Below are positions 31,776 to 64,000 of a DNA stretch of 64,000 bases, piece by piece (position 1 is the first letter of the stretch; each line of letters opens with the position of its first letter). The DNA is from a virus, in IMG/VR virus record IMGVR_UViG_3300032322_002195, positions 32,001 to 96,000 of that record, one strand, 5' to 3'. Position numbers and translations under genes: made by a program. The notes below the pieces were generated by a model. That model did not search any database. It was not told where the DNA came from and saw only the letters and a program-made list of their open reading frames with translations.

Positions 31776-32507
31776 ATGATTGAGGATATTCTAAAAGATA
31801 AGTATGGTAATTATTTAGTTGGCTTAGACATCTATGAAAATAGAGGTAGTCTTAGATTGTCTAGAATTATTATAAAACCAGAATATATGGGTAAAGGTAT
31901 TGGTAGCAAAATTATGGAAGATTTGGTAGAGTATGCTGACAATAATAAAAAAATAATCGTTCTGACCCCATCAAGTGATTTTGGCGGTAATAAAAACCGT
32001 TTGATACAATTTTATAAACGTTTTGGTTTTAAACACAACAAAGGCCACCATAAAAGTTTTGAATTTATGGACTCTATGATTAGATATCCAAATTTAAATG
32101 AAACTATGAAACCATTTATAAAAACTTTACTTAGAGAAAGTTTGATGACTAAAGAAGATTCTGTTATTAGACAAGTTGTTGATTTTGTTAATTTTTCTAA
32201 AGAATTCTTAGGTATTGACGATGATATTAAAGTTAAATTGGCATTTGAAAGGACACCAGATTTAAAAACAACAGCTTATTACAGCACCAATGGTTTTGTG
32301 GTCGTATACGCAAAAGATAGAGCCATAATAGATGTTTGCCGTTCAATAGCTCATGAGCTAGTTCATCATAAACAAAACTTGGATGGGAGACTTAGAGATG
32401 CTGCTCGTGATGGTGAAGACGGTTCACCAATAGAAAATGAGGCAAACGCTATTTCTGGTATTATAATTAGAAAATACGGTAGACTTAATCCAGAGATTTA
32501 TGTGTAA
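31776..32507 (+). CDS. GNAT acetyltransferase fused to a zincin-like (HELVH) domain
   Basis: YMGKGIGSKIM and FYKRFGF GNAT motifs; IAHELVHHKQ...IENEANA. Confidence 0.75.
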   Translation: MIEDILKDKYGNYLVGLDIYENRGSLRLSRIIIKPEYMGKGIGSKIMEDLVEYADNNKKIIVLTPSSDFGGNKNRLIQFYKRFGFKHNKGHHKSFEFMDSMIRYPNLNETMKPFIKTLLRESLMTKEDSVIRQVVDFVNFSKEFLGIDDDIKVKLAFERTPDLKTTAYYSTNGFVVVYAKDRAIIDVCRSIAHELVHHKQNLDGRLRDAARDGEDGSPIENEANAISGIIIRKYGRLNPEIYV

Positions 32508-33357
32508 CACAAAACAACTTTTACGAGAAGAACTTTATTTACACAATAGAAAAAAACTATTGTCTGAACAATCTCTATTGATTATACAAGATGATTTTTA
32601 CGTCAAAACAACATTAGGTATCGATAAATTCCTTTATGAAAATAATTTATTTGAATACAAAAAATTAATAATTGAACAACAAATAATTATAGAATCAATG
32701 CTAGTTTCTATAAACAATTATTTAGGTAATATGGTTCAAAAAGGTAAAGAAAAATCTTTGCAGTTAATGAATGATATTAAAAATGTTAAAGATTTAGCAA
32801 TATTATTTAAAAATATTTTACTGGACCCAAAATTGATGGAAGAAGCTATTGAAAATGTTAAAAATGCTATTAATAATCAGTTGGATAGAATTAAATTGTT
32901 GATAGAAAAAGTTATTCAAGTTATTTCTGTAAATTTGGTTGGTTTTACAGATAAATTAAAAACTTTTTTAGATAATGTTTTAAAATATGGTAAAGAATTC
33001 CTTGATAAAAAAGGCTGGGTTGGCTTTATAATGGGGTTAGGATTAGCCGTGTTATTAACATGGGTTAATAAAAATTGGTTGGAAAAATTAGGGGGTGTAG
33101 TTTTGGACAAAACGATAGAGCAAATTAAAAACATTGAGTCAGTTATAAATATTTTCAATAGCTTAAAAGATTTGTCATCATACGTTGCCAGTAACTTAGG
33201 TATTGAAAACATCCTAAAATGGTTTATAAATTTTGGTACTAAGACTCAATTAATTGGTGTAACGTTTTTAGCAGCTGAAATAATCAAAATAATTTACGAT
33301 ATTTTAGTCCCAACGGTTAGAGACGTAAAAACAAGATTTAATTTGTCAAAAACTTAA
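32500..33357 (+). CDS. hypothetical membrane-associated protein
   Basis: Hydrophobic GWVGFIMGLGLAVLLTW segment. Confidence 0.65.
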   Translation: MCNTKQLLREELYLHNRKKLLSEQSLLIIQDDFYVKTTLGIDKFLYENNLFEYKKLIIEQQIIIESMLVSINNYLGNMVQKGKEKSLQLMNDIKNVKDLAILFKNILLDPKLMEEAIENVKNAINNQLDRIKLLIEKVIQVISVNLVGFTDKLKTFLDNVLKYGKEFLDKKGWVGFIMGLGLAVLLTWVNKNWLEKLGGVVLDKTIEQIKNIESVINIFNSLKDLSSYVASNLGIENILKWFINFGTKTQLIGVTFLAAEIIKIIYDILVPTVRDVKTRFNLSKT

Positions 33358-49352: not shown

Positions 49353-49701
49353 TTTTTAAATATTTAATTGATTAATGATGGGGCAAAGGTAGTAAAAAAA
49401 TTGAAACTACCAAATTTTATTTTAATTAATTTGAAAAAGTTTATTAACAATTAGGTTGTTAATAACTTTATTTGGTAGATTGAAAAATTTTTATTATATT
49501 ACGCACGTGTGTATGTGTATAAAAAAATATAAGGCAGGTTGGAGTATACTCTTCCGTTGTTTTTTGAACCCCAGCCCGTTGTTTTTGAATTATCAACGGG
49601 ACAAAGATAGGGAATAAATTTGTAACTACCAAATTTATTTTAATTTATTTATAAAAAAAAAGCACCCTATTAATAGAGTGCTTTTTTGTGGTGTGTTTAT
49701 G

Positions 49702-50220
49702 TTATTCAGCGAACATAATTTTCGCACCGCATTTGATTTCTTTGATACCTGACAATTTGACAGTTCTCACAATAATATCATTTTCAAGTTCTTGGTTTGT
49801 TGCTTTGCTTGGTGCTGGTTTAAATTTCTTTATAGTGGAAATTTGCTCGTCTGTTGCTTCAATACCATCTACGAAGTATTTTAGCGTTTTAGCGTTATTA
49901 CAAGCGAAAAACAAATATAAAGCGGTTGTATCTTTTTTATTGCAAACGATTGAGCCGTTAAAGCCATCATTCACTTTCTGAAACCAATTTTCTTTGGCTT
50001 CAAAATCTGCTTCTTTACCTTCTTTCTCTCTGCGATTGTTTACCATATTGGTATAATTCGCATTAAGGAGCATATTGTAATTAACCATTTTGGTAATTTT
50101 GGCAGTTGCCAATGGATTGCCCCTTTTCAGTTGCTTTTCTTCTACGATTGCGGTCATTTGTGCGAAAGTAGCAGAACCGCCATCATTGATAAGGGTTTCG
50201 ATAATTGATTGTTTGTTCAT
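49702..50220 (-). CDS. hypothetical protein
   Basis: 172-aa ORF with its own promoter and terminator. Confidence 0.75.
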   Translation of the reverse strand: MNKQSIIETLINDGGSATFAQMTAIVEEKQLKRGNPLATAKITKMVNYNMLLNANYTNMVNNRREKEGKEADFEAKENWFQKVNDGFNGSIVCNKKDTTALYLFFACNNAKTLKYFVDGIEATDEQISTIKKFKPAPSKATNQELENDIIVRTVKLSGIKEIKCGAKIMFAE

Positions 50221-50526
50221 ACGTTTGTTTGTTTAATTGTTTAACGATGATGCAAATAAAGGAATTATTTTTGACATTACCAAATTTAAATGAATTTATT
50301 TTAAGTTAGTTTATCAACATTTTTTTGTTGATAACTTAATTTGGTAGTATGGAATTTTTTTTGTACTTTTGCAAACTTTTTTCGGATATGTATAAAAAAA
50401 ATATAAGGTAGGTCGGAGTATACCTTCCGTTACCTTGTGAGCAACGTCCCGTCTGATTGACACTGCAAATATAAAAAAAAGGTTTGAGATTACCAAACCT
50501 TTTTGAAAATAAATTTGTTAAATTTT

Positions 50527-50766
50527 TTACCACCTATCATACCACTTTGAAGCATAGTAGTTTCTTGCTTTTTTATGGCTTTGTTTTTTAGGTTTCACAT
50601 AGTAGGGTGTTTTGCTTGCTTTCTGTCCCCAAACTACTTCCGTTCCTCTTGATATGGGTGTTGGCGCACCTTTACCCATAGAAACTGAATAGCAAGGTGA
50701 TGTAGTGCTGCAAGAGCTAATAAAGAGGGTAAGAGCTGCGAGGGTTGATAATACGATTGTTTTCAT
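50527..50766 (-). CDS. small putative lipoprotein
   Basis: MKTIVLSTLAALTLFISS-C. Confidence 0.6.
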   Translation of the reverse strand: MKTIVLSTLAALTLFISSCSTTSPCYSVSMGKGAPTPISRGTEVVWGQKASKTPYYVKPKKQSHKKARNYYASKWYDRW

Positions 50767-50859
50767 GTTTGTTTGTTTTAGTGATGCAAAGATAGACAAG
50801 TTTTTGATATTTCCAAATTTTAAATGAATTTATTTTATAAAAAAATTTTTGGTAGAAAA

Positions 50860-50891
50860 TTTGGTAGATTGAAAAAAAGTTTGTATATTTG
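50860..50891 (+). promoter_or_regulatory. Bacteroidota-type promoter driving the ncRNA cluster
   Basis: tttg-gtagattgaaaaaaagtttg-tatatttg. Confidence 0.8.
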
Positions 50892-50966
50892 CAGTGTTGT
50901 AAATGGTTCACAAGGTGTCTGAAAGTGGACTAACCAAATACGCAGGTCAATCGACATTTACAACAT

Positions 50967-51066
50967 AGTCAGAGAAGCATGATTAGGTTATATGCCCTAC
51001 TTGGGTTGAAGTAGTTACTTCGTAATTCCGCATGGGTGATAGCAGGTTCGAATCCTGTCCTGACTA
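50967..51066 (+). ncRNA. tRNA-like RNA with atypical interior
   Basis: Acceptor AGTCAGA/CCTGACT and T arm GCAGG-TTCGAAT-CCTGT; no recognisable D or anticodon arm. Confidence 0.6.
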
Positions 51067-51152
51067 CTAATTAGACCAACCTCCTTCCCATTAGAACAGG
51101 ACGCTCAGGATTTAAGTAGGGTTTGATTCCCCTTAATTAATTGGTCAATTTT

Positions 51153-51231
51153 GGTTAAATGGCGTAGCTGGATAGCGCAAGGATAGTGGCAGACCCCACC
51201 CTTTACACAGGTTCGAATCCTGTTTTAACCA
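51153..51231 (+). ncRNA. tRNA-like RNA with aberrant anticodon arm
   Basis: Acceptor GGTTAAA/TTTAACC, D arm GCG..GG..CGC, T arm ACAGG-TTCGAAT-CCTGT; bulged anticodon stem with a 6-nt loop. Confidence 0.65.
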
Positions 51232-51330
51232 CGAATGCAGTTCAAATCTGCTCGTTGACTGAGGTTATGGTAAGTAGACTATTGAGGTACGCACTCAACT
51301 TAGAAATAAGGTAGAATGAAGTGAACAGTC

Positions 51331-51363
51331 AAAAAAAAGGGGTTGCTAATGCACCCCTTTTTT
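51331..51363. terminator. bidirectional intrinsic terminator
   Basis: aaaaaaagggg-ttgctaatgca-ccccttttt. Confidence 0.8.
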
Positions 51364-51386
51364 ATTTATATGTACGCAAATGTGTA

Positions 51387-51542
51387 CTATTTTTTTAGGT
51401 TAATGAATCTATTTTTTGTTTCACCTTTTAATCGGTAATTAAATTTGAATCCAGAGCCATCTTCAAATTCAATCATTTGAATTGGGAGTTGGAAAGAGAA
51501 GTGGTTTTTTTCTATTTCTGATATTGCTTGTTGAAGTTTCAT
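51387..51542 (-). CDS. small hypothetical protein (51 aa, not in ORF track)
   Basis: MKLQQAISEIEKNH...EFEDGSGFKFNY. Confidence 0.55.
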   Translation of the reverse strand: MKLQQAISEIEKNHFSFQLPIQMIEFEDGSGFKFNYRLKGETKNRFINLKK

Positions 51543-51828
51543 ATTAATTTATTTAAATGTTATTGAATATAAGAGCCACATAAAGCAGAGTAAATAGGGA
51601 ACCCAAAAAGATTATTGGGTAATAGAACTCTAATGGATTTGATTTCCTTTTTTGGTTTAGGGATGATAAAACTTGTTTCATTGTTTTGATTATTTAATTG
51701 ATAGGACAAAGATAAGCAAATTAATTTAAACTACCAAATTTATTTTGAATTTTGAAGACCTACTCAAATATTTTATTAAAAACCAATTGGTTGCAAAAAG
51801 GTATGTATATATGATAGTTATAGGTAAT

Positions 51829-51999
51829 TTAAAAACTGACCATGTGCCAAATTTTACATTCTATATCTAATTTAAGTTGTTGCTCTTTAATTTTGCTTTC
51901 ATTAGCCCAGTAATATTTCCAAAATTCATCATCTGATTGAAATTGTCCTATTTTTATTTCTTTCGTTTCAGCAAAATTAAACATAAAGTACTGTTTCAT
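51829..51999 (-). CDS. 56-aa ORF inside attC-type cassette A (not in ORF track)
   Basis: MKQYFMFNFAETKE...WHMVSF; the stop lies in the cassette terminal repeat. Confidence 0.55.
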   Translation of the reverse strand: MKQYFMFNFAETKEIKIGQFQSDDEFWKYYWANESKIKEQQLKLDIECKIWHMVSF

Positions 52000-52019
52000 A
52001 ATTCAGTTTTTAAACATAC

Positions 52020-52115
52020 CTATAACAAAGTGTATAAGTAATGTGGCTAAATAAATTTAGTTCTAAGTTGAAAGTATGTGCAAAGCCACACTACTCATAC
52101 ACTCAACCGTTAGCG
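52020..52115 (+). mobile_element. attC-like integron recombination site 1
   Basis: R'' CTATAAC and R' GTTAGCG; inner arms gtgtataagtaatgtggct / agccacactactcatacac. Confidence 0.75.
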
Positions 52116-52121
52116 GTAATC

Positions 52122-52382
52122 TTAAAGACACTCCGCATATTCAATATATTCTTTATGCCTTTGTCTAAAATGATTGAGATGCCATTTAGACCTTTCAATA
52201 AATTCTTTCGGTGCATTTTTACTTTCGAGCCAATAAAGGTGGTTCTTTTCCTTTTCAATCATTCTTTCGACAAAAGGTATTATATCGTTTACCATTTGCT
52301 CCTTGAAAGAAAGACTACCGCTAACAACAGGTTTATTCAATGCGGGTTTTCTGCTCCCAAATAACATTTTTAGTAATTTCAT
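52122..52382 (-). CDS. 86-aa ORF of cassette B, starting inside attC site 2
   Basis: The N-terminal PALNKPVVSGS is the antisense reading of the attC arm. Confidence 0.6.
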   Translation of the reverse strand: MKLLKMLFGSRKPALNKPVVSGSLSFKEQMVNDIIPFVERMIEKEKNHLYWLESKNAPKEFIERSKWHLNHFRQRHKEYIEYAECL

Positions 52383-52448
52383 ATTTTCTGCTTTTAAGTT
52401 AATTTATCTGTTAATTCTAGCACTAAATAAACCTGCGGTACGTTAGCA
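52319..52448 (+). mobile_element. attC-like integron recombination site 2
   Basis: R'' CGCTAAC and R' GTTAGCA; inner arms caggtttattcaatgc / gcactaaataaacctg. Confidence 0.75.
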
Positions 52449-52459
52449 GAAAAAGTTTG

Positions 52460-52750
52460 CTAAAACCTCTTTCCACAATTATTGCAGTGATAACCTCTAT
52501 GAGTTCGTACTCTGTCTTGGGTACTGTGAAAGCAAACTTCATCTGCTAACACAGTACATAACTTTTTTTTTAGGTATTTAATTACATCAGCCCAATATTC
52601 ATCATTAGGAGAAAAACCTATATTTGATGCTATTTTTTCGGCACACCAAATTGCTATCCTTATCGAAATGGCTTCTTTTGTTCCTCCTGAAGATGGTGCA
52701 TATTCATACGCTTCATCAATTAGTTTTTCTGCTTGTTGTTCTACTGTCAT
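52460..52750 (-). CDS. hypothetical protein whose C-terminal CxxC tail comes from cassette C
   Basis: Reads through the TGCTAAC box at 52544-52550. Confidence 0.6.
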   Translation of the reverse strand: MTVEQQAEKLIDEAYEYAPSSGGTKEAISIRIAIWCAEKIASNIGFSPNDEYWADVIKYLKKKLCTVLADEVCFHSTQDRVRTHRGYHCNNCGKRF

Positions 52751-52806
52751 TACTTGTCGTTTTTAACTAATCATAATTGATTATTTGATAAGACAAAGAT
52801 AAGCAA

Positions 52807-53064
52807 TTAATTTGAATCTTCCAAATAAAATTTTACAAAAGGTTCCATCTTAAATTCCTTTACAAATTCGTATTGTTGGTCTTTTGGGATTACATCCAAT
52901 AATTCTCTTATTCTTGGTGTATCGTTAATTAAAAAACCACCAGTCATAAATTGTTGTCCATCTTTTTCAATAGCTGCTAAACTATTTGTTTTATTGATAG
53001 CATTGGCCAACAATATAACTTCTTCATATCCATTTGTGTCAGGTGTAATGTGTAAAATTTTCAT
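52807..53064 (-). CDS. hypothetical early protein
   Basis: Own promoter repeat; ends inside the next repeat (YLEDSN). Confidence 0.7.
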   Translation of the reverse strand: MKILHITPDTNGYEEVILLANAINKTNSLAAIEKDGQQFMTGGFLINDTPRIRELLDVIPKDQQYEFVKEFKMEPFVKFYLEDSN

Positions 53065-53128
53065 TTGTTTTGATTATTTAATTGATAGGACAAAGATAAG
53101 CAAATTAATTTAAACTACCAAATTTATT

Positions 53129-53377
53129 TCAATCGTCATCTCTCTCAAATTGCGATAAAAAATTTTGTACCTTATCGTTTAAATCTTTATGTTCTTTTTT
53201 TAATTTAGAATGATAACTTTGATAATAGTTTAAACCATCAATAAGAGCTTGTTGTTCGCTTTTGGCATGAATTGCTATATTAAAACCAGCTACGTTATCC
53301 CAAAGATAATACCCATCCGTACATTCTGTCAAAATTAGTCTATCAGTTTTAAATACATTTCTAATTGCTTTTCCCAT
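53129..53377 (-). CDS. hypothetical early protein
   Basis: Own promoter repeat. Confidence 0.7.
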   Translation of the reverse strand: MGKAIRNVFKTDRLILTECTDGYYLWDNVAGFNIAIHAKSEQQALIDGLNYYQSYHSKLKKEHKDLNDKVQNFLSQFERDDD

Positions 53378-53409
53378 GATTGATTTTTTGATAGGGCAAA
53401 GATAAGTAA

Positions 53410-53619
53410 TTAATTTGAATCTACCAAATAAAATTTGATATTATTTTTATTTACTGGGGTTACATAACCTTTTAAATAAATTAATTCATTTTCTATTTTG
53501 ATTGGAACAAATATTCCACCATTAATATAAACCCTGCCAACAATCCTATATGGTTTATTTAATTCAATGTTTTCTATTGGTGTTTTGGTTGCCAATAAAT
53601 AAGCAGCTGTCATACTCAT
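53410..53619 (-). CDS. hypothetical early protein
   Basis: Own promoter repeat; ends YLVDSN inside the next repeat. Confidence 0.65.
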   Translation of the reverse strand: MSMTAAYLLATKTPIENIELNKPYRIVGRVYINGGIFVPIKIENELIYLKGYVTPVNKNNIKFYLVDSN

Positions 53620-53717
53620 AATTGATTATTTGATAGGACAAAGATAAGTAATTAAATTGATATAAACAAAAAAGGGTGAAAATATTTTCACCCAATTTAT
53701 CATCAATCAAAACGCTT

Positions 53718-53912
53718 TTATAATGTTGGATATTTTTCTAGGAATTCGGTATAAACTTCATTAGGATTAATTTCAACGCTGGTATCTTTATATTTCATTA
53801 CCAAATATTTCACAAAATTAATTTTATGATTGATAAATGAATTATCATTGCCAGCAATTATTTCTTGAATATCATTTAAATGTGATGCGATGATTAGAGA
53901 TACTTTTGCCAT
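53718..53912 (-). CDS. hypothetical early protein
   Basis: Own promoter repeat. Confidence 0.65.
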   Translation of the reverse strand: MAKVSLIIASHLNDIQEIIAGNDNSFINHKINFVKYLVMKYKDTSVEINPNEVYTEFLEKYPTL

Positions 53913-53966
53913 GTTGTTTAATTATTTGATAGGACAAAGATAAGTAATTAATTTAAACTACCAAAT

Positions 53967-54233
53967 TTATTTTTGTGGAATAGTTACTCTTGTTAAGATA
54001 AATTCTTCTTGAAAATCTCCATTATCCCATTTGATTTTTGTTAATTGGAATTGTTCTTCTTTTGGTCTAAGGGAATTCAAGTATTCAACACGACCCATTT
54101 TAACACCTTGTGAATTTTTTCCTGAGTGACCAATTCGGTTAAATTCATTTAATTCCTCTTCGCTTAAGAAATCTAACGTTTTACCATTAACATGACCCAA
54201 TGAGGTGCTTATTCTAAAATTTTCTATTATCAT
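53967..54233 (-). CDS. hypothetical early protein
   Basis: Own promoter repeat. Confidence 0.7.
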   Translation of the reverse strand: MIIENFRISTSLGHVNGKTLDFLSEEELNEFNRIGHSGKNSQGVKMGRVEYLNSLRPKEEQFQLTKIKWDNGDFQEEFILTRVTIPQK

Positions 54234-54309
54234 TTGTTTTGATTATTGATAAGACAAAGATAAGTATAAAAAACGAAACCACCAAATTTCTTTGATGGTT
54301 TCTTTTAAA

Positions 54310-54606
54310 TTAGTTTAAGATTTCTTGAATGCTCGGCTTATCCAATTCTGCCTTATAATCTGCCAAAATCTTTTCAAATTCGGGAAGACATTCAGCAGCC
54401 GTTTTTCCTTTTAAACCATAATAGTCTTTTAAATCTTTTAGCTTAATTCCTTTGAATTTCATTCCAAGTGAAAGGATTTTAAGATTATAGCGGTGTGTAG
54501 CCAATTGATAACCAAAGTAATCTATTTTTTTGTTACCCATTGAAACACTTGGTGTACTTAATTCACCATTTCTAACTTGTTGTTGTGCTTGTTCGAATTT
54601 TGTCAT
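54310..54606 (-). CDS. hypothetical early protein
   Basis: Own promoter repeat. Confidence 0.7.
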   Translation of the reverse strand: MTKFEQAQQQVRNGELSTPSVSMGNKKIDYFGYQLATHRYNLKILSLGMKFKGIKLKDLKDYYGLKGKTAAECLPEFEKILADYKAELDKPSIQEILN

Positions 54607-54851
54607 TGTTTTAATTATTGATAGGGCAAAGATAAGTAAATTAATTTAAACTACCAAATTTTTATTTAGAATTTTTTTTGTCACCCTCAAAGACAAACCC
54701 ACTGGAAAACCACCATAGAGCCAACCTGAAAGACCAATAAATATTTCTACCATGATTACGCCCATTGATATAACATTCATAGGCTTTTTTTACTCTGTAT
54801 TTTGTAATTTTCATACTGCAAAGATAAGTAAATTAATTTAAACTACCAAAT

Positions 54852-55103
54852 TTATTTTTTTCCCACCGCACTACTGATAACTTCTAAATCTGAAATTCGT
54901 TCCATTAAGGCATCAATCTCATGTTGCATTTTGTCCTTATCGTCTTCAAGTTCTACAACCGCTGCGATTAGGTCATCAATCTCATGTTGCATTTTGTCCT
55001 TATCGCCTTCAAGTTCTTCAATCTCTGCGATTAGGTCATCAATGATGCTTTCAAAATCTCTTTTGGCGATATCAACTCGCCTTGATAAACGTGTATTATC
55101 CAT
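54852..55103 (-). CDS. acidic coiled-coil protein with an internal 21-aa duplication
   Basis: IDDLIAEIEELEGDKDKMQHE / IDDLIAAVVELEDDKDKMQHE. Confidence 0.7.
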   Translation of the reverse strand: MDNTRLSRRVDIAKRDFESIIDDLIAEIEELEGDKDKMQHEIDDLIAAVVELEDDKDKMQHEIDALMERISDLEVISSAVGKK

Positions 55104-55204
55104 TTTAAAATTTGTTATTGATTATTGATAAGGCAAAGATAAGTAATTATTTTGAATTTACCAAATTTATTTCAAAAAAAAAGGGAGAAATTTCTCCCTT
55201 TTAT

Positions 55205-55543
55205 TTAGTATGCACTTGTTGGCATATTTTGATTTTGTTCGTAGCTTTGGCTTTCCCATTCAGAATCTGGGTTTGTAAGGCTATGGTAGTATTGTTTAAG
55301 TTGTTCAGCTATTTTATCTAACTTAACTTGTTGTTTGTCGGTGCAAGGTTTTCGGTAAGCGTTTATTGTGTTATCCGAACAAACCCTACCAAGCAAACCA
55401 CCACCTAAGTAATTCTGATAACTTGTCATTTTTTCACCCTTAAATCCGAGAGTATCCAAAGATATTTCAATTCCACCACCACGTGAAGTAATTTGTGAAC
55501 GTAGTGTGATTTTTTCAAAGTCGATTTGTTTTGCTTTTGCCAT
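55205..55543 (-). CDS. hypothetical early protein
   Basis: Own promoter repeat and terminator. Confidence 0.7.
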   Translation of the reverse strand: MAKAKQIDFEKITLRSQITSRGGGIEISLDTLGFKGEKMTSYQNYLGGGLLGRVCSDNTINAYRKPCTDKQQVKLDKIAEQLKQYYHSLTNPDSEWESQSYEQNQNMPTSAY

Positions 55544-55663
55544 TGTTTAATTATTGATAGGGCAAAGATAAGTAATTCATTTTAATCTACCAAATTTATT
55601 TTCAAAAAAAAAAAAGGATTGCATTTCTGCAACCCTTTCTCATCATCAATCAAACAAACTTAT

Positions 55664-56338
55664 TTAACTTTCAGCAACAAGTAGTGTTTTATACTCTTTT
55701 TCTGTTAAGTGTCTTGGTGTTTCCAATTCTTTGTAACTACCTTTTGGTTTAATCAAAATACAATCACCTTGTCGGATAATCTTTTCAATCTTTCCTTTTG
55801 GCACATTCGTTTGAATAGTCCACGCAATACATTGAATAGCGTTTACTTTATTTATTTCGTAATTCCAACTATTCTCGTTATTCGTGTTATACACACTACG
55901 AGGTTCAACCCAAATAAGATATTCTCTGTCGGTTGATGTATCTTTGCATTTCACATAATATGAATTTTGCATTTTTTGCCAACCCTCTAACCCTTCACTA
56001 AATACTTCACCACTCACTTCATAAAGTTCATAGGTATCATTGAATGTATGTTCAACAACTTCACCATTCTCTGTTACCCAAGTGGTTGATTTTGTCAGCG
56101 TTTTTGAACTAAGTAATTTAGGGTTTACTTCTTTAACTAACCTATCCAACCCAAAGATAAGCATACCAACCCTTCTTTGTTCCAAATTAGGCAACCCAGC
56201 AATTTGTTTAAAAGATAGTGGTTTGATGTCTGCCCAAATGTCTTCAAGTTCGGGGAAAGGACAATTTTCGTGTTTCAGTTTAAGTAAACCACACCCTAAA
56301 TCATAAGGGAATTTTGTGTTGTTGATAACGATTTGCAT
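55664..56338 (-). CDS. DUF6745-like protein
   Basis: NLEQRRV...VKCKDTSTDREYLIWV...AIQCIAWT; family recalled from memory. Confidence 0.5.
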   Translation of the reverse strand: MQIVINNTKFPYDLGCGLLKLKHENCPFPELEDIWADIKPLSFKQIAGLPNLEQRRVGMLIFGLDRLVKEVNPKLLSSKTLTKSTTWVTENGEVVEHTFNDTYELYEVSGEVFSEGLEGWQKMQNSYYVKCKDTSTDREYLIWVEPRSVYNTNNENSWNYEINKVNAIQCIAWTIQTNVPKGKIEKIIRQGDCILIKPKGSYKELETPRHLTEKEYKTLLVAES

Positions 56339-56409
56339 ATTGTTTAATTTTTATTTAAGACAAAGATAAGGGGAATTTTTCAATTCCCCAAATATTTTTC
56401 TGTTTTTTT

Positions 56410-57048
56410 TTAATCACTATCTCTGTAAATTGTGTATTCTCTACTCACCGTCAAAGTAAGGTCATTACCAACAAGCACCAAATCTTCGTTATCTTCATTT
56501 GTAGTGAAAACAAACCAATCAGTAGCTTCACCTTCTGCATCTTCGGGTTCAAAGGCATAGCAAGATTGAATGATTTTTTCTTCCAAACTTTCAACCAATT
56601 TTTCTTGTTTGTCAGTTAAGATAAAATCTTTTTTGTAATTGATAGTGAAATTACCTTCTTCACCATTGAGGTTATCAACAAATTCAGAAACAAAAGCAGC
56701 TTCTTCATCAGTTAATGAAACTTTTGTTTTACCATCAAATCTTTCACTCCACTCACTTTGAGCATTTTTTATGTAATAAAAATCATCTTCATCTTCATTT
56801 AAAGTAATTTCAACGCAACCACTTTCACCTTGATAGTGTCCGTCTGAATTTACATAAAATTCAACATTGTTGTAAGTTTTTCTGTCAAAATAATCAACCA
56901 ATTCTTGATTTTCAACCCATTCATTTTCTTTGTCAAAAATCTCAATGTCGGTATCGCCCATACTATCTCCACCGCAATTAAATTTAAAATTGATGTGGTC
57001 AATACCCAACTCTTTCCAAAGTTTTACGATTTTTTCTGTTTGTTCCAT
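56410..57048 (-). CDS. DUF6878-like acidic protein
   Basis: FNCGGDSMG motif; adjacent to the DUF6915-like gene. Confidence 0.5.
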   Translation of the reverse strand: MEQTEKIVKLWKELGIDHINFKFNCGGDSMGDTDIEIFDKENEWVENQELVDYFDRKTYNNVEFYVNSDGHYQGESGCVEITLNEDEDDFYYIKNAQSEWSERFDGKTKVSLTDEEAAFVSEFVDNLNGEEGNFTINYKKDFILTDKQEKLVESLEEKIIQSCYAFEPEDAEGEATDWFVFTTNEDNEDLVLVGNDLTLTVSREYTIYRDSD

Positions 57049-57105
57049 TTTTTATTTGATTTTTAATTTACAGCAAAGATAAACATTATTTTTGAATTAC
57101 CAAAT

Positions 57106-57501
57106 TTATTGTCTTATTTTTTCCAAAAATTCTTTTGCGGTTAGTTCCGATTCGGGATTGTCAATGTTTTTAACTCCGTTACACATCCACGCTTGAACTT
57201 CCAAATGTTTCAAATAGTCTTGTGGTGTTGGCACAAATCTCATTTTAAAATCTTCTGCGATATGCAACATAGCAATATCAACCGTATCAACACTTTTGCC
57301 ATCGGAATTTACAATGTTATACCCAAAGATTTTAGGTATGATAGTGTAAGCAAACCAAGTGTTATGTGTTAATAACCTTGATGAATTGTTATTCATTGTA
57401 GCCTTTGGGCTATCAAGTAATTCGTGAATTGGTAAGTAACATTCAACACTACCACCCCACCTTTTAACCGAACTCTTTGCGTGTATCATTGGATTTGCCA
57501 T
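57106..57501 (-). CDS. DUF6915-like protein
   Basis: MANPMIHAKSSVKRWGG..YLPIHELLDSPK..HNTW..HIAED..VPTPQDYL. Confidence 0.65.
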   Translation of the reverse strand: MANPMIHAKSSVKRWGGSVECYLPIHELLDSPKATMNNNSSRLLTHNTWFAYTIIPKIFGYNIVNSDGKSVDTVDIAMLHIAEDFKMRFVPTPQDYLKHLEVQAWMCNGVKNIDNPESELTAKEFLEKIRQ

Positions 57502-57567
57502 AATTGTTTGTTTATTTGTTATTGATTATGGTGCAAAGATAATAAATTATTTTGAACTACCAAATTT

Positions 57568-57810
57568 TTATTTAGAATTTTTTAATACCTCTCCAATAGC
57601 TATATGCAAATCTTTTAATTGTTCTCTTGTCATATAAGGTATCATCATTGTATGATAGTACAAATTCCTACGTTCTGAACGACTATCGTGGTCTGGATAT
57701 AGATTATTATCTTCAATGCTAATATAACCAACATTACCAGTTAAACCAACATATATCTTATGCCCATTAGCATAGGTAAATCTTTGTGCAAGTTTTTGTT
57801 GTTTTGCCAT
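57568..57810 (-). CDS. hypothetical protein
   Basis: 80-aa ORF. Confidence 0.65.
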   Translation of the reverse strand: MAKQQKLAQRFTYANGHKIYVGLTGNVGYISIEDNNLYPDHDSRSERRNLYYHTMMIPYMTREQLKDLHIAIGEVLKNSK

Positions 57811-57897
57811 TTTAAATTACTTTATTTAAAAATAAAAATGGGTTGTTTCCAACCCATTTACCCCCCATACTGAATCATCTACTGAAATCCATACTGC

Positions 57898-58164
57898 TTA
57901 ATCCCAAACTCTACTAATAGTTGCATTAAACGGATTGTATTCAATTTGTTTCCCAAGAACCCAATTTCCTTGTTCAACTTGCAAACCTTTGTGTTCAGCA
58001 AAATTGCCATTAGGTTCTTCGTGTTTCAATACACTATTTTCTTTTACAGAAATCTCTGCAAAATCTGTTAGCGTATCTTCCGTTGAAAAGCTACCATATA
58101 AGGTATGTTGGTTTGCACCTTCACCTTTTAGGATTGTCTGTTTTGTTTTTTTACGTTTTGCCAT
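57898..58164 (-). CDS. His-rich small beta protein
   Basis: LKGEGANQH..LKHEE..EHKGL..KQIEYNP. Confidence 0.65.
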   Translation of the reverse strand: MAKRKKTKQTILKGEGANQHTLYGSFSTEDTLTDFAEISVKENSVLKHEEPNGNFAEHKGLQVEQGNWVLGKQIEYNPFNATISRVWD

Positions 58165-58356
58165 TTTGTTTAATTTTATGCAAAGATAAGAAAAAAATTT
58201 TAATCTACCAAATTTATTTTGAAATTAATTTAAATAAACTCCATCCAATAAAATCTGATAAGCCAGACTCAATTCGTTTGGTCTATTGAGACGCAAATTA
58301 AATTCGGTTGAAATCAATTTCAATTGTGGTAAAAGCATGGAAAATTTCATTTTACT

Positions 58357-58530
58357 TTATTTAAAAGTTTCGTAAAGTTTTTGAATTTCAGAACCTGTCA
58401 ACCATTTAGGTAATCTGTCTTGAGAACCAATAAGGTTTGATTTTCTTAGGATTTTAATCTGCTCCTCTTGTGTTTTAGCCCTCCACCATTGAAGGGCTAA
58501 ACTTCTATCTTCGTTGCTAATATTATCCAT
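58357..58530 (-). CDS. small hypothetical protein (57 aa, not in ORF track)
   Basis: MDNISNEDRSLALQWW..., preceded by a promoter repeat. Confidence 0.6.
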   Translation of the reverse strand: MDNISNEDRSLALQWWRAKTQEEQIKILRKSNLIGSQDRLPKWLTGSEIQKLYETFK

Positions 58531-58579
58531 TTTTTTATTATTGAATGCAAAGATAAGTAAATTAATTTAATCTACCAAA

Positions 58580-58786
58580 TTAATTTTCAATTTCTTCAAC
58601 TGAACAATAATCGGCAATATCCACCAATGGAATTCTACCATAATCACGAGAAGAATAATGCCCTTGACTTTCGTAGCGTTTTACGAACTTCTTGATTTCA
58701 CTTTGGAGTTGGCTTTCAGTATAGGTTAGTTTATCCATACGGATATCAAAACCATCAGGTGAAAGAATACGGAATCTTTTTTTCAT
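58580..58786 (-). CDS. hypothetical early protein
   Basis: 68-aa ORF with a structured leader. Confidence 0.65.
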   Translation of the reverse strand: MKKRFRILSPDGFDIRMDKLTYTESQLQSEIKKFVKRYESQGHYSSRDYGRIPLVDIADYCSVEEIEN

Positions 58787-58926
58787 TTTAATTTATTTTA
58801 AATTTAACAAAATGTGATAAGGCATTAACATAATGTTGGGACTAAACCTCACTTCTTATGTATATTTACTTCGTTATCTCCTTATCACACTATGCAAAGA
58901 TAGTAATTATTTTGAATCTACCAAAT

Positions 58927-59154
58927 TTATGCGTAAATTATTTCACCATTCCATTGTGGGTGTGAATACATTTCGGGGCACAAATAACAATCGTACCCTC
59001 TTTCTTCAAGGTCATCAATGTATTGGTCATATTGGTCAGCCAAGATTTGAACGTGCGTTCCCTTGTCAAATACTCGTACAGGCGATTTGTCGGTCTTATC
59101 TTCGTGTGAAGTATCCCAAGTTCCGTTGATAAAGATGTTGATTAATGTGTTCAT
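58927..59154 (-). CDS. hypothetical early protein
   Basis: Likely start MNTLINIF after the promoter repeat. Confidence 0.65.
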   Translation of the reverse strand: MNTLINIFINGTWDTSHEDKTDKSPVRVFDKGTHVQILADQYDQYIDDLEERGYDCYLCPEMYSHPQWNGEIIYA

Positions 59155-59206
59155 GTTTTGATTATTTTGATAGGACAAAGATAGTAATTATTTTGAATCT
59201 ACCAAA

Positions 59207-59527
59207 TTAATTTGATATTCTTTTTTCTGTTTTAATTTGTTCAGTTTCATATTGCTCGGCAACAAATAATATTTCTTCCAACACATCCTTTGACAAATTC
59301 TCATACGCAACTTCGTAATCGTGTATGCTGTCGCTACCCATACTGCTACAATCATATACTCTAACTTCAACTGATTTATAGTTAAAGTATTCTGCCAATG
59401 CAATCAAATCACCCATTTCATTTACAACTGGGCTGTTACTTGGTTCTACTTCACCGCTACCAAAAGGTTCAAACTCTCTAATAATGGTTTTAATTTGTTT
59501 GATGATTGATTTCTTAGTCTTAGCCAT
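59207..59527 (-). CDS. hypothetical early protein
   Basis: Own promoter repeat. Confidence 0.7.
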   Translation of the reverse strand: MAKTKKSIIKQIKTIIREFEPFGSGEVEPSNSPVVNEMGDLIALAEYFNYKSVEVRVYDCSSMGSDSIHDYEVAYENLSKDVLEEILFVAEQYETEQIKTEKRISN

Positions 59528-59560
59528 GTTTTAATTATTTTGATAGGGCAAAGATAGTAA

Positions 59561-59833
59561 TTATTTTGAATCTGCCAAATCTTTTTTCAATTTTTTTATC
59601 ACATTTAAATCAGCCTCAATCGGACCAGCTACAGCTGCAATGGAATCCTTAACACTCAAACCCCAAAAATCTTTATTCCAAATTTCAGTACGGAATTTAT
59701 CAATTACGCTTTCACAAGCTGAAAGACTTTCTTTATCCAAACCCTTATAAGTTTTGGAAGGCTTTAACCCAAATAGGGTAAAGAAATAATGTTGCTTAAC
59801 AAGCTTAATTGAATTACGAAAATCCTGTTCCAT
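59561..59833 (-). CDS. hypothetical early protein
   Basis: Ends LADSK inside the next repeat. Confidence 0.65.
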   Translation of the reverse strand: MEQDFRNSIKLVKQHYFFTLFGLKPSKTYKGLDKESLSACESVIDKFRTEIWNKDFWGLSVKDSIAAVAGPIEADLNVIKKLKKDLADSK

Positions 59834-59837
59834 GATT

Positions 59838-60014
59838 TTAATCTAATTTTTCTAAATTCTTATAAAGAAAGATAACTTCATCTTGTTCTTGTTCGGTTAA
59901 TGAATCCCCAAGAATTTCAAGCTTATCAGCTAATTCTTGTGATGCTTGACCTTTCTCTTCAATTTCTTGGTTAACCAAATTTTGAAGTTCAATAAATTCT
60001 AATGCTTTGCTCAT
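59838..60014 (-). CDS. hypothetical early protein
   Basis: Likely start MSKALEF. Confidence 0.6.
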   Translation of the reverse strand: MSKALEFIELQNLVNQEIEEKGQASQELADKLEILGDSLTEQEQDEVIFLYKNLEKLD

Positions 60015-60091
60015 GTTTGATTGATTTGATAAGACAAAGATAAGAATAAAAAACGAAACCACCAAATTTATTTTGATGGTTTCATTGAATT

Positions 60092-60529
60092 TTATTTTAT
60101 TTCATTGGTTTGATAAATCACTCGTTTATATAACTGGCCTTCATGTCTTGGAGTTGCAACAATCACATCAACGATTTGATATGTTTCATCCTTAGCCAAA
60201 TAAATAAATTCAGTTAGAACATTACTTTCAACTTTTTGTTTGCGATTACGATTGTAAAAATCGGTTATGTCAGTTTCAACAATTACAATTTCTGCATCTT
60301 CAACAGATACAATAAATCTTGGATTAATTTCAATATTACCACCTTCTACCAATAACAATTCCCAAAAACCATTTAATGCCTGTTCCTTATTAATCTTAGT
60401 AGTATAATAAGTATCTGTTGAACCACCTAAACCACCACCATAACTCACAAGTATTTTTTTAACTTTTTTGGTTCTATGAGATAAAATTCTTGCTGGAGAG
60501 CAAGGTACACCAATTTGTATTGTTTTCAT
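60092..60529 (-). CDS. hypothetical early protein
   Basis: Own promoter repeat. Confidence 0.7.
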   Translation of the reverse strand: MKTIQIGVPCSPARILSHRTKKVKKILVSYGGGLGGSTDTYYTTKINKEQALNGFWELLLVEGGNIEINPRFIVSVEDAEIVIVETDITDFYNRNRKQKVESNVLTEFIYLAKDETYQIVDVIVATPRHEGQLYKRVIYQTNEIK

Positions 60530-60672
60530 TTTTAATTATTTTTTGATAAGGCAAAGATAGTAATTATTTTGAATCTACCAAATTTATTTCAAAAAAAAAA
60601 ATTATAAATAAAGTAAAATAAATTTGTTTATATCAATATTTTATCTATCTTTGCCCTATCAATTTAAAACAA

Positions 60673-60930
60673 ATGTCAAAACAAACTCAACGTAGCATTA
60701 GCGAAATCGCTCTAGAAATTCGCAAAGATTGGAAAGCAACTTCCAAAAATGGTATCTATTTTGGTGCTAAACCTTATTTAGAAGCTATGGAAATGCTTAC
60801 CGATAAAACAAGCCGTTATGGTTATGATTCAGCTTCTAGCATTATAAACTACTTCTTAGCTAATGCTTCAACTTATCGTGGAACCAAAGCAAAAGAATTA
60901 AAAGCTGAATTGAAAGCGATAATCAAATAA
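60673..60930 (+). CDS. hypothetical early protein (inverted unit)
   Basis: Plus-strand promoter repeat at about 60623-60653 and terminator at about 60945-60974. Confidence 0.75.
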   Translation: MSKQTQRSISEIALEIRKDWKATSKNGIYFGAKPYLEAMEMLTDKTSRYGYDSASSIINYFLANASTYRGTKAKELKAELKAIIK

Positions 60931-61040
60931 AGTAGTATAAAATTAAGGCTCCAGATAATCTCTGGAGCTTTTTTATTTTCAGTACTTTTAAATGAATTTG
61001 TTTACAGTGATATATTTACTGTAAACTAATTTATTTAAAC

Positions 61041-61343
61041 ATGGAACAAAAATACTTCTTCGGTTGGGATAATATCAAATGGTTTATCTCAGAAATTTGC
61101 AAAATCTATTCATCACAACCTTCTTTCTTTTCTAAGAAAAGAATTGAATCTGGAATCGCTTTTATTATTGCTCAATGGGGAATGATTTATTTCCTAGTTA
61201 CTCACTCATCAGCTTTAACGATGGGTGAATTTTTATTATGGGCGACCACTGAATTTGCCGTATCAGGTTATATAATCAATCAAATTCAGAAAGAAAAAAA
61301 AGAAATCGTTTCGGAAGAAAATCCACAACAACTTAATGATTAA
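61041..61343 (+). CDS. small membrane protein (holin-like)
   Basis: SKKR followed by two hydrophobic helices. Confidence 0.55.
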   Translation: MEQKYFFGWDNIKWFISEICKIYSSQPSFFSKKRIESGIAFIIAQWGMIYFLVTHSSALTMGEFLLWATTEFAVSGYIINQIQKEKKEIVSEENPQQLND

Positions 61344-61384
61344 CGGAGCTTAGCTGAATCCATGTACACAAACGTGTACACCAT

Positions 61385-61843
61385 ATAAAATAGCCAAACC
61401 CCTGTCCACATTTCGGGCTCAGGGGTTGACTTTTTCTAATAATTGGCCGCATATAAGCTGCCTTCGGTTGTTAATGCGGGCATAGCCGCCCGCTGGCTGA
61501 ATTAAGAGGTGAGAGCCCACCCCAATCAATCGGCTCAAACTGATTGAGATGTCACCACTTTTTGGCTCAATGGGATGCCTTCCCACCGACTTACGTCCCT
61601 TGGCAGGGAACCTTTTTCGGATGTTTGGGTACACAGTGCCAATCTGCCTTTCGGGAGGGGCTGATGTCCCATTTTTAATATAAGGTTTGACCGACCTTAG
61701 TTAATCCTTTTCAGGGGATACGGATGGTGCATTAGCATACATATCACTATGATGTTTTTTGTAATCCTAGGACAGCTACCACAGTCTACATCCTAGGTAC
61801 TCAACGCTTTTATAACTAATGTGTAAGTTAAGCGTAAACTTAC
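61385..61843 (-). ncRNA. large structured non-coding RNA of unknown class
   Basis: Own promoter (-7 box 61848-61855), GC-rich, many hairpins, no credible ORF; ends approximate. Confidence 0.65.
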
Positions 61844-61898
61844 AAGACAAAGGTAAGAAATAAATTTGATATTACCAAATTTATTTTCAATTTTTTTG

Positions 61899-62022
61899 CG
61901 GTCATAATTGGACTCGAACCAATAAGATGATGCTTATATGTCGTTATTCCTAGCAAATTGGTATTTATCATTTCCAAGTTGCCGCTATCTGATTAATCTC
62001 TAGCTTTACGACTAATATGACC
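61899..62022 (-). ncRNA. tRNA-like RNA with a large structured insert
   Basis: Acceptor GGTCATA/TATGACC and T arm ATTGG-TTCGAGT-CCAAT; own promoter at 62049. Confidence 0.65.
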
Positions 62023-62268
62023 AAGTATTAATTTCAATGAACGTGAGACAAAGGTAAGAAATAATTTTGATATTACCAAATTTATTTTACCTTTTCAATG
62101 GCTGAAGATATTATCGTTCCTAATATAATTAATAATGATTGGGTACCGATAATTTTTAAATAAATTTCGTTTTTATCACTCCAAAGAGCAAGTACGGCTA
62201 TTGGAAACATACTAAGTAATATCAACCCAAGAATAGCGTTAATAGTTTTTTTCATTTTTTTGTTTTTG

Positions 62269-62342
62269 TGCGCCCTGCTGGGCTCGAACCAGCGACCTAT
62301 TGATTATGAGTCAATTGCTCTGACCAACTGAGCTAAGGGCGC
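62269..62342 (-). tRNA. tRNA with CAT anticodon, probably tRNA-Ile2 (lysidine type); CCA not encoded
   Basis: GCGCCCT-TAGCTCAGTTGGTCAGAGC-A-ATTGA-CTCATAA-TCAAT-AGGTC-GCTGG-TTCGAGC-CCAGC-AGGGCGC-A; resembles ileX-type tRNAs. Confidence 0.92.
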
Positions 62343-62356
62343 AAATAATTATATCA

Positions 62357-62614
62357 TTATTTACTTTCTTGAATAATAAACTTCCCTTCGATAAGTCCAT
62401 ACTTGGATTTTTCTTGATAAGAATAAACCTCAACTGAATCGGTTGATTTCATCGGTTTTGTCAATATCCAAAGTTGGTCATCTTTCCAAGAACAATTCAT
62501 CAATTTTTGATTTTTTTCTAAGGTAAATGTTTGGGTTTGTCCATACTTTTTAACCAATACGTTATCGCAACTGGTTAAGGAAATTATTCCAATAAGTAAT
62601 AATAGTTTTTTCAT
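62357..62614 (-). CDS. small lipoprotein
   Basis: MKKLLLLIGIISLTS-C lipobox. Confidence 0.7.
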   Translation of the reverse strand: MKKLLLLIGIISLTSCDNVLVKKYGQTQTFTLEKNQKLMNCSWKDDQLWILTKPMKSTDSVEVYSYQEKSKYGLIEGKFIIQESK

Positions 62615-62628
62615 GTTTTATAATTGTT

Positions 62629-62835
62629 TTATTTTTTATTTGTTTTATGCCACTTGTCAACGTTTTCCCAATTTAGCATAGCTAATGCACCTAGAAGTGA
62701 TTTATCACGTGGTTTTTGCAATCTTGCATATGTTTCAACATTATCAATCATAACCTGAATGATTTGATGATGCTCAAGTGTTTGAGCCGTTTCAATCGAC
62801 TTATGTATTTTTATGGTTGCTTTAACAAAATCCAT
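62629..62835 (-). CDS. hypothetical early protein
   Basis: Likely start MDFVKAT. Confidence 0.6.
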   Translation of the reverse strand: MDFVKATIKIHKSIETAQTLEHHQIIQVMIDNVETYARLQKPRDKSLLGALAMLNWENVDKWHKTNKK

Positions 62836-62871
62836 TTTAATTAGGTTGAATGATAAGACAAAGATAAGCAA

Positions 62872-63111
62872 TTATTTTGAATCTACCAAATTTATTTTTA
62901 ATTGTAAATGGTCGAATCCTTTTATTTTATTGGTTGGTAAACCATTACGTTTCCACATCCCACTAATATAACCCTCATGCAAATTTGGTTTGCCCATATA
63001 AGGACACTTAACCATACCAACAATAATATTATCCAAAGGCAACCACCTTAGATTTTTTACTGGATAACCCTCAATGGTTTCTGTTATTTTATTTAATTCC
63101 TCTGTTTTCAT
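62872..63111 (-). CDS. hypothetical early protein, probably leaderless
   Basis: ATG 4 nt after TATCTTTG; ends NLVDSK inside the next repeat. Confidence 0.65.
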   Translation of the reverse strand: MKTEELNKITETIEGYPVKNLRWLPLDNIIVGMVKCPYMGKPNLHEGYISGMWKRNGLPTNKIKGFDHLQLKINLVDSK

Positions 63112-63177
63112 AAGGCAAAGATAAAAATAAAAAATGAGATTACCAAATGATAACCCCATTTTTTTTTGAAACTTTTT

Positions 63178-63705
63178 TTACTCGGCAAAGTCAGGTTTTA
63201 TTTCAGCATACCCGATTGGTTTCTTGCTTTCAACTGAAATAATATCTCTAGCCCACGTTCCAATGTACTTATTTTCACCTTCAAAGTCACCACCACCCCT
63301 GCCGTTTCCTTCGCACGTAAGCAATGGTAGAGGGTGTATTTTAGTTCCTTTCCACATAGGGATTTCAGAAACCGAAAACTTATCCACAAATTGCTTTTTG
63401 GTGTGGTTTACAATGTAACGTGTTTCAGTTGTGGTAAACCTTTCCGTAGGTTTAACTTTTTCTGTGTCCTTGCAACGGCCATACAAATTTGTTTTTCTGC
63501 CTTTGCATTCATCGGCATAGTCGCCAGCCCATACAACCCTTTGAGGTTTGTTTTTGATTAGGCTTTCAAAGGCACTCACAAAATCATTTCCAATGTCGGA
63601 ATGTTCCATGAGTTTAAGCCCATTGTCGTATTCGTGTGAATACATCCAAGATTTTACTGTTTTTTTGTTTTCAGCAAGCAAAATTGGTTTAAAATACTGT
63701 CCCAT
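63178..63705 (-). CDS. hypothetical phage protein
   Basis: MGQYFK..GLKLMEH..VWAGDYAD..HPLPLLT.EGNGRGGGD..GTWARD. Confidence 0.75.
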   Translation of the reverse strand: MGQYFKPILLAENKKTVKSWMYSHEYDNGLKLMEHSDIGNDFVSAFESLIKNKPQRVVWAGDYADECKGRKTNLYGRCKDTEKVKPTERFTTTETRYIVNHTKKQFVDKFSVSEIPMWKGTKIHPLPLLTCEGNGRGGGDFEGENKYIGTWARDIISVESKKPIGYAEIKPDFAE

Positions 63706-64000
63706 TTTTTTAATTATTTAGTTGATTAGTGATGCAAAGATAGTAAAAAAAATGACACTACCAAATAGTAGTGCCACTTTTTTTGAAACTTTTTTTATCC
63801 GTTGTAAATTGTTTCTAATTGTTCATACAATTTACCCTCGCTTGTACTAAACACAAAGTGCTTAACAACGGCTTTCAAACGCTTAATCATGTGCTTATGA
63901 TTATAGCCCTCTGTTCTAAGCATGAGCTTAATAAGAGCTTCATTCATTTGTCGTGTGTTTGGCACAATTTCAGCACACTCACTCACACAATCAATGAGTT

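Follow-up and report, generated by a model that had tools for sequence, protein, structure and literature searches.

An uncultured freshwater phage carries, on the plus strand of the window analysed here (a 64,000-nt stretch of DNA, positions 32,001 to 96,000 of the 108.8-kb IMG/VR record IMGVR_UViG_3300032322_002195), a non-coding unit that extends from a promoter repeat to the T run of a terminator (50860-51369). Judging from its sequence, this region is probably one unit encoding stable, non-decoding tRNA-shaped RNAs together with a conserved structured RNA, termed here element 5. Five RNAs had been proposed at this place in an earlier note on the same DNA. Three of them (elements 2, 4 and 5) are under selection as RNA and a fourth, element 1, is plausible, but element 3 did not exceed chance level.

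The source record (32% complete according to CheckV) carries portal, terminase and major head genes, and the G+C content of the window is ~31%. Two minus-strand ORFs, one on each side, flank the region 50769-51386. The unit had been described as free of ORFs; ORFs of 31-64 aa do overlap it, but none of them shows signs of coding. Its promoter (50860-50891, +) consists of a -33 TTTG box and a -7 TAnnTTTG box inside a phage promoter repeat of Bacteroidota type, which occurs in 19 copies in the window (0.05 expected), only two of them, including this one, on the plus strand. The host of the phage is probably a member of the Bacteroidota. By analogy with other Bacteroidota promoters, the transcript is predicted to start a few bases past the promoter, at ~50893-50899. 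At the other end, an intrinsic terminator (51333-51369, +) is formed by an 11-bp hairpin (51333-51363; -14.7 kcal/mol, z -3.15) followed by a T run; it points towards the end of the minus-strand ORF 51387-51542 as well. The plus-strand promoter and terminator that had been noted earlier are therefore both in place (repeat at 50861-50891, hairpin with T run at 51333-51363), and together they would delimit a separate transcription unit of ~440 nt, whose transcript would be a precursor that codes for no protein and is predicted to be processed.

The promoter repeats (TTGGTAG, 14-24 bases, TAnnTTTG) span positions 49384-63764 of the window, 17 of the 19 on the minus strand, and each precedes one or two short ORFs. 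One copy belongs to a further tRNA-shaped RNA without an anticodon arm (61895-62010, minus strand), which was not called by ARAGORN or Rfam. Its acceptor measures 7 bp (GGTCATA paired with TATGACC), its T arm is canonical and its middle is ~85 nt long. Adjoining this RNA and a tRNA-Met, a GC-rich, ORF-poor block of ~430 nt (~61400-61835, minus strand) lies directly downstream of a promoter repeat and had no Rfam match at E up to 1.

The whole stretch had no match among cultured phages at E 1e-5. For the array of a relative, the only matches were to tRNA-Leu genes or to DNA without annotation, from a few cyanophages and uncultured phages. In the Rfam scan only element 4 and the tRNA-Met passed the thresholds, and the matches at E up to 10 were terminator or T-arm artefacts; neither ARAGORN nor Rfam identified a tmRNA. 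A search for antisense targets in the 108-kb record found none (best complementarity 13 nt, E 0.58). Among the listed sequencing runs in which the stretch occurs, none is recorded as RNA.

Element 4 (51153-51231, +) has a class I tRNA body without an anticodon loop. Its acceptor is formed by 7 bp (51153-51159 with 51224-51230), its D arm is of class I and its T arm canonical (51207-51223), and where an anticodon arm would be expected there is a bulged hairpin of 25 nt whose loop measures 6 nt. It scored 46.4 bits against the Rfam tRNA model (RF00005; gathering threshold 29) and was reported by ARAGORN as 'tRNA-???', with no readable anticodon, in agreement with its original description as a tRNA-like RNA with a malformed anticodon arm. 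Element 2, which had been described as lacking normal D and anticodon arms, was found at exactly 50967-51066 (+) and is a non-decoding tRNA-shaped RNA of the T5 RNA2 subtype. Its acceptor (50967-50973 with 51059-51065) has six pairs and one A.C mismatch, its T arm (51042-51058) is canonical, its variable loop measures 5 nt, and A73 and C74 are at 51066 and 51067. The D arm is unusual, with a 4-bp stem and an 11-nt loop that holds GG, and the anticodon arm is replaced by a branched insert, whose short stem, located where that arm would be, leads into two hairpins and one single-stranded segment. Element 2 had no match to RF00005 at E up to 10, and with introns allowed and a relaxed threshold ARAGORN drew it as a tRNA-Gln only with a forced 3-nt intron. 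The folding energies of the two RNAs are not unusual for single sequences (z -0.66 for element 2 and -1.07 for element 4). In both, the acceptor could be extended to an 8-bp stem, because the T at 50966 can pair with A73 at 51066 and the T at 51152 with 51231; such T(-1)-A73 pairing may bear on the position of the RNase P cut.

Element 2 led to a wider family. A 21-nt motif, comprising the end of its T arm and the acceptor, was found in >120 IMG/VR contigs among the matches listed, often several times per locus, and from these listed loci we extracted 143 distinct RNAs (65-182 nt, median 102), referred to here as the tRNA-Leu-chassis family. These RNAs are near-invariant at both ends, with the acceptor and a D arm of Leu type on the 5' side and the T arm, acceptor, A73 and C74 on the 3' side; their middles are unrelated, differing in both sequence and length. 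The family acceptor pairs AGTCAGG with CCTGACT, followed by A73 and C74 and preceded by a T at -1; this T is present in 78% of 148 family copies and C74 is kept in 97%, whereas the search pattern itself required A73. The CCA end is not part of the encoded sequence. The Leu-type D arm has a short stem and a loop with AATTGGTAGA or similar. Element 2 forms six of the seven pairs of the family acceptor, with A for G at position 7, and carries the T at -1, A73 and C74; as in the family, its T arm is canonical and joined to the acceptor, and a variable insert replaces its anticodon arm, but it is without the Leu-type D arm. ARAGORN saw a tRNA in 29/143 of the chassis RNAs, with scattered anticodons. 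Extra T-loop hairpins in the inserts are not a general feature (5/143, against 0.5 expected).

The 21-nt motif occurred in 18 of 185,579 species genomes, in every case on a metagenome-bin contig, about half of which are labelled Bacteroidota, in line with a restriction of the motif to phages. The family has no Rfam entry; a sequence search did not find the motif printed in the papers covered, and word and sequence searches of the literature returned no description of the family. A review of jumbo phages mentions only Ro with its tRNA-like partner. At one locus (L129:1485-1568) a true tRNA-Leu(CAG) directly follows the homologue of element 5, and its D and T arms closely resemble those of the chassis family; this similarity suggests that a phage tRNA-Leu gave rise to the chassis. 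At another (L162:881-952, minus strand), the family acceptor sits on an RNA whose anticodon arm is canonical (anticodon CAU in the loop CUCAUAC) and whose T arm differs, so that the conserved acceptor is also found on an apparently working tRNA. The near-invariance of this acceptor across unrelated phages and on different bodies goes beyond what processing needs, and hints at a specific partner or at a DNA-level role in recombination.

The apparently working tRNA at L162 raises the question of whether elements 2 and 4 might decode after all, as frameshift or stop suppressors with unusual anticodon arms or as precursors that need editing or splicing. The score of element 4 above the Rfam tRNA threshold and the tRNA-Gln into which ARAGORN can force element 2 agree with such a role. 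However, neither RNA has the anticodon stem-loop (5-bp stem, 7-nt loop with U33) and both are therefore unable to decode; the loops of the inserts are, moreover, out of register between homologues, and to our knowledge neither short tRNA introns of this kind nor splicing enzymes for them exist in bacteria or their phages. We consider decoding very improbable.

Element 5 (51231-51332, +) is a cloverleaf-like RNA, in which a T-loop hairpin (P0, 51237-51251) is placed outside the cloverleaf, on its 5' side. This hairpin is followed by the 5' strand of the closing helix P1 (51255-51261 with 51326-51332), an invariant 16-nt strand that resembles a D arm, P2 (51282-51298; 5 bp, 7-nt loop), P3 (51299-51310; 4 bp, GNRA loop), a conserved strand of ~16 nt and the 3' strand of P1. 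P0 could be extended by pairing 51231-51234 with 51252-51255, and a D-arm-like hairpin may form at 51262-51280. Copies that have diverged from 51208-51329 are present in contigs of four freshwater DNA metagenomes, where the T-loop hairpin and one further hairpin show paired changes, and pattern scans identified true homologues of the element at eight loci (L128, L129, L137, L144, L151, L156, L162 and L169).

We aligned the window copy with seven of these (L144 is cut and was left out; 7/8 sequences are distinct). In this alignment 91% of the cells of a four-helix model are paired and 9/20 pairs have changed on both sides, a result reached by none of 500 shuffles, with compensatory changes in all four helices. 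RNAalifold recovered the same helices unaided and added the P0 extension, which makes use of A73 and C74 of the upstream RNA, as well as the D-arm-like hairpin, both of them invariant in the aligned sequences. The T-arm hairpin and closing stem proposed for this element are thus backed by covariation, the comparison across related phages having been suggested along with them.

Element 5 is a previously undescribed conserved structured RNA that travels with the chassis family. A permuted tRNA, a piece of tmRNA and a small self-cleaving ribozyme were considered, but none of them is supported: an acceptor strand that would match is missing downstream, and Rfam gave no match. In other phages it lies between two chassis RNAs, and in the window and in L137 before the terminator. 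Its covariance model gave no additional copy in T5 or in ~120 contigs with chassis RNAs, so that element 5 accompanies the family only rarely. Five of the seven distinct homologues have UACG at positions 2-5 of the 7-nt P2 loop, which we take to be the anticodon-loop motif of tRNA-Arg(ACG). The essential deaminase TadA recognises this motif on a bare stem-loop.

Could these RNAs be the decaying remains of a former tRNA cluster? The mismatch in the acceptor of element 2 and its odd D arm would fit pseudogenes, as would element 3, in which a T-loop-like hairpin and a closing stem, both of them weak, recall a ruined tRNA. The even spread of mutations over all arms by which the earlier note would have recognised simple pseudogenes was, however, not seen. 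In the copy of element 2 at L129 (85% identical), the acceptor, D arm and T arm are nearly unchanged and the insert holds the substitutions and indels. The body of element 4 is identical at 60/64 positions (94%) to homologues at L079:4024-4087 and in L130, which carry the chassis-family acceptor where the window copy has another; four of the seven acceptor pairs differ from those of L079 on both strands, and all seven still pair. Such uneven, compensated changes are the opposite of evenly spread decay. The covariation in element 5 and the retention of a promoter and terminator by the unit also argue against decay, as does the degree of conservation: the RNAs are 80-94% identical to copies in phages whose sampled loci share almost no protein with the window phage (the exceptions being the close relative L137 and one weak match in L129), and they are better conserved than the surrounding proteins. 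Decay is accordingly an extremely doubtful explanation. The proposal that these RNAs are selected for tRNA mimicry or as processing punctuation, rather than for translation, is supported by the conserved shapes of elements 2, 4 and 5.

The constant shapes contrast with an exchangeable content. L137, a contig with flanks 91-97% identical to those of the window, keeps the promoter, element 5 and the terminator, but the leader and the spacer between them are others, and the RNAs there are two canonical members of the chassis family. The frame of the operon is therefore constant while its RNAs are swapped, which shows cassette exchange. Element 5 and the terminator are kept together in both L137 and L144. 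Two syntenic relatives, L002 and L003, in which the neighbouring protein is 86% identical, are without the RNA unit at that place and have one tRNA-like RNA elsewhere. Beside the unit, a 90-aa minus-strand ORF with a lipoprotein-like N-terminus (50527-50799; a hydrophobic stretch and then a Cys) is absent from L137, and its presence or absence is a gain or loss of a gene module.

An exchange of this kind between near-identical phages might mean that the constant ends act mainly as DNA, as targets of recombination or of homing endonucleases that drive the swapping of cassettes between co-infecting phages, with the RNA shape being secondary. Constant ends do flank variable middles, the same acceptor is found on different bodies, and HNH endonuclease genes are interspersed in the tRNA region of T5. 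On the other hand, no endonuclease or integrase gene adjoins the unit, the two strands of every acceptor have stayed complementary to each other, and element 5 covaries as RNA. We therefore regard a mainly DNA-level role as improbable; it could also add to selection on the RNA instead of replacing it.

Element 1 (50895-50965, +) forms the leader of the unit. The 10-bp closing stem that had been proposed for it is real and measures 11 bp, all perfect (50895-50905 with 50955-50965), a length reached in only 3 of 300 dinucleotide shuffles, and the folding z-score of the element is -2.0. The helix begins close to where transcription is predicted to start and ends one base short of element 2. An element of this kind is plausible as an RNA; no homologue was found among the fetched loci or by a pattern scan of IMG/VR, and it may be a mere spacer.

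For element 3 (51068-51152, +), located between the two tRNA-shaped RNAs, the letters of the proposed closing stem and T-loop-like hairpin are present, but an RNA gene is not supported. Its ends pair weakly (51069-51079 with 51141-51151, 9/11, of which 6 bp are perfect), shuffles typically yielding helices of 7-8 bp, the folding z-score is +0.10, and the three pairs of the T-loop-like hairpin are no better than chance. No true homologue was found among the fetched loci, the sole match of an IMG/VR pattern scan being a chance match in GC-rich coding DNA, and L137 and L129 carry unrelated spacers at this position. Element 3 is best read as a spacer.

These observations bear on whether the tRNA-shaped parts are punctuation only, that is, cutting marks for RNase P and RNase Z that release elements 1, 3 and 5 as the working products. 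Each of these three has ends that are able to pair, element 5 is conserved, structured and placed between two chassis RNAs in other phages, and in T5, stable RNAs that are not tRNA-like adjoin RNA1 and RNA2. Elements 1 and 3 are nevertheless not conserved, relatives having unrelated spacers there, and the long structured inserts and near-invariant ends exceed what a cutting mark needs. A role as punctuation alone is rather unlikely, and we favour the reading in which the tRNA-shaped RNAs are themselves stable products of the unit, selected for the upper body of a tRNA and not for decoding.

According to this preferred reading, elements 2 and 4 would fold as the upper body of a tRNA, with acceptor stem, T arm and a D loop holding GG, and tRNA-processing enzymes of the host would cut the precursor at these tRNA-shaped parts. 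RNase P would cut at their 5' ends, and RNase Z, or trimming, would act at their 3' ends together with CCA addition, as for phage tRNAs that lack an encoded CCA. Stable tRNA-shaped RNAs would thereby be released, along with leader, spacer and trailer RNAs with paired ends. Processing and stability would come from the tRNA frame, which would also give access to proteins that bind tRNA; the specific activity would reside in the exchangeable middle and in element 5.

Because the unit lies inside an array of small, promoter-driven accessory genes, this activity is most probably aimed at host takeover or counter-defence, a reading for which the evidence is circumstantial. No TROVE, CCA-adding or RtcB domain was found in the 108-kb record, which covers about a third of the genome. 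More tentatively, and with a chance that we put well below even, the unit might be a modular RNA weapon, in which the tRNA frame delivers exchangeable inserts and element 5 is the partner RNA, and which would bind or divert host proteins directed at tRNA, for example defence nucleases, toxins that modify tRNA ends or tRNA-modifying enzymes. The UACG in the P2 loop of element 5 offers a concrete lead in this direction. If the inserts are effectors against host tRNA-directed defences or enzymes, they would constitute a widespread, RNA-based layer of the conflict between phages and their hosts.

RNAs of this kind, phage tRNA-like stable RNAs, are already known from T4 and T5, where they were described in the 1970s and 1980s; what is new is the companion, element 5, together with the specific link to T5 RNA2 and an exchange observed within a single operon. 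In T4, species 1 and 2 (rnaC and rnaD) are small stable RNAs that come from the tRNA gene cluster and share their transcription and processing with the tRNAs. We know of no function found for the stable tRNA-like RNAs of either phage.

As compared with canonical tRNA (RF00005), elements 2 and 4 have the acceptor stem, D arm and T arm in common with it, and differ in that both are without the 5-bp/7-nt anticodon stem-loop; element 2 in addition obtains no score against the model. YrlA, the Y-RNA-like partner of Ro, resembles the RNAs described here in that a tRNA-like module is part of a non-coding RNA. In YrlA, however, the tRNA-like part is internal and the ends of the RNA form the Ro-binding helix. 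An identity with YrlA and Ro is not supported, there being no Rfam match; the lack of a TROVE domain in the record, about a third of the genome, is weak evidence.

The closest parallel is found in T5. In the T5 record (AY543070), the annotation of RNA1 and RNA2 reads 'tRNA-like stable RNA with unknown functions'. Beside them are RNAI, RNAIII, RNAIV and RNA2H, each entered as 'stable RNA with unknown functions', along with tRNAs and genes for HNH endonucleases. RNA1 (30501-30644) is an annotated example of the chassis family, with a Leu-type D arm and an insert of ~70 nt. Element 4 differs from the family in its class I body and, in the window, in its acceptor; its L079 homologue has the family acceptor. 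RNAIV (32838-32940) follows the tRNA-like RNA2 in an arrangement recalling that of element 5, and combines a closing helix with a hairpin whose 7-nt loop resembles an anticodon loop; the element 5 model does not match it.

RNA2 itself (32959-33083) and element 2 have the same tRNA-shaped plan of acceptor, D arm (stem of 4-5 bp), canonical T arm and, where the anticodon arm would be, a branched insert, and both lie in an RNA cluster beside other stable RNAs. They differ in the sequence of the acceptor (7 bp in RNA2, with one mismatch in element 2), in the D arm and in most of the insert, and their 5' halves gave no convincing alignment. Their phages are otherwise unrelated, T5 being an enterobacterial siphovirus and the phage of element 2 an uncultured freshwater one with Bacteroidota-type promoters. 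Yet the two RNAs share a block with 36/40 identical bases (E 6e-9, in a search against 5 kb of T5), which starts 16 nt upstream of the T arm and runs from the junction of the insert (CCGCA) through the variable loop into the T arm; within IMG/VR, this block was found only in T5-like phages and in L129. By sequence, element 2 is thus an RNA2-like body on a chassis-family acceptor, and the block that it shares with RNA2 offers a route from a large family of uncultured phages to a phage that is genetically tractable.
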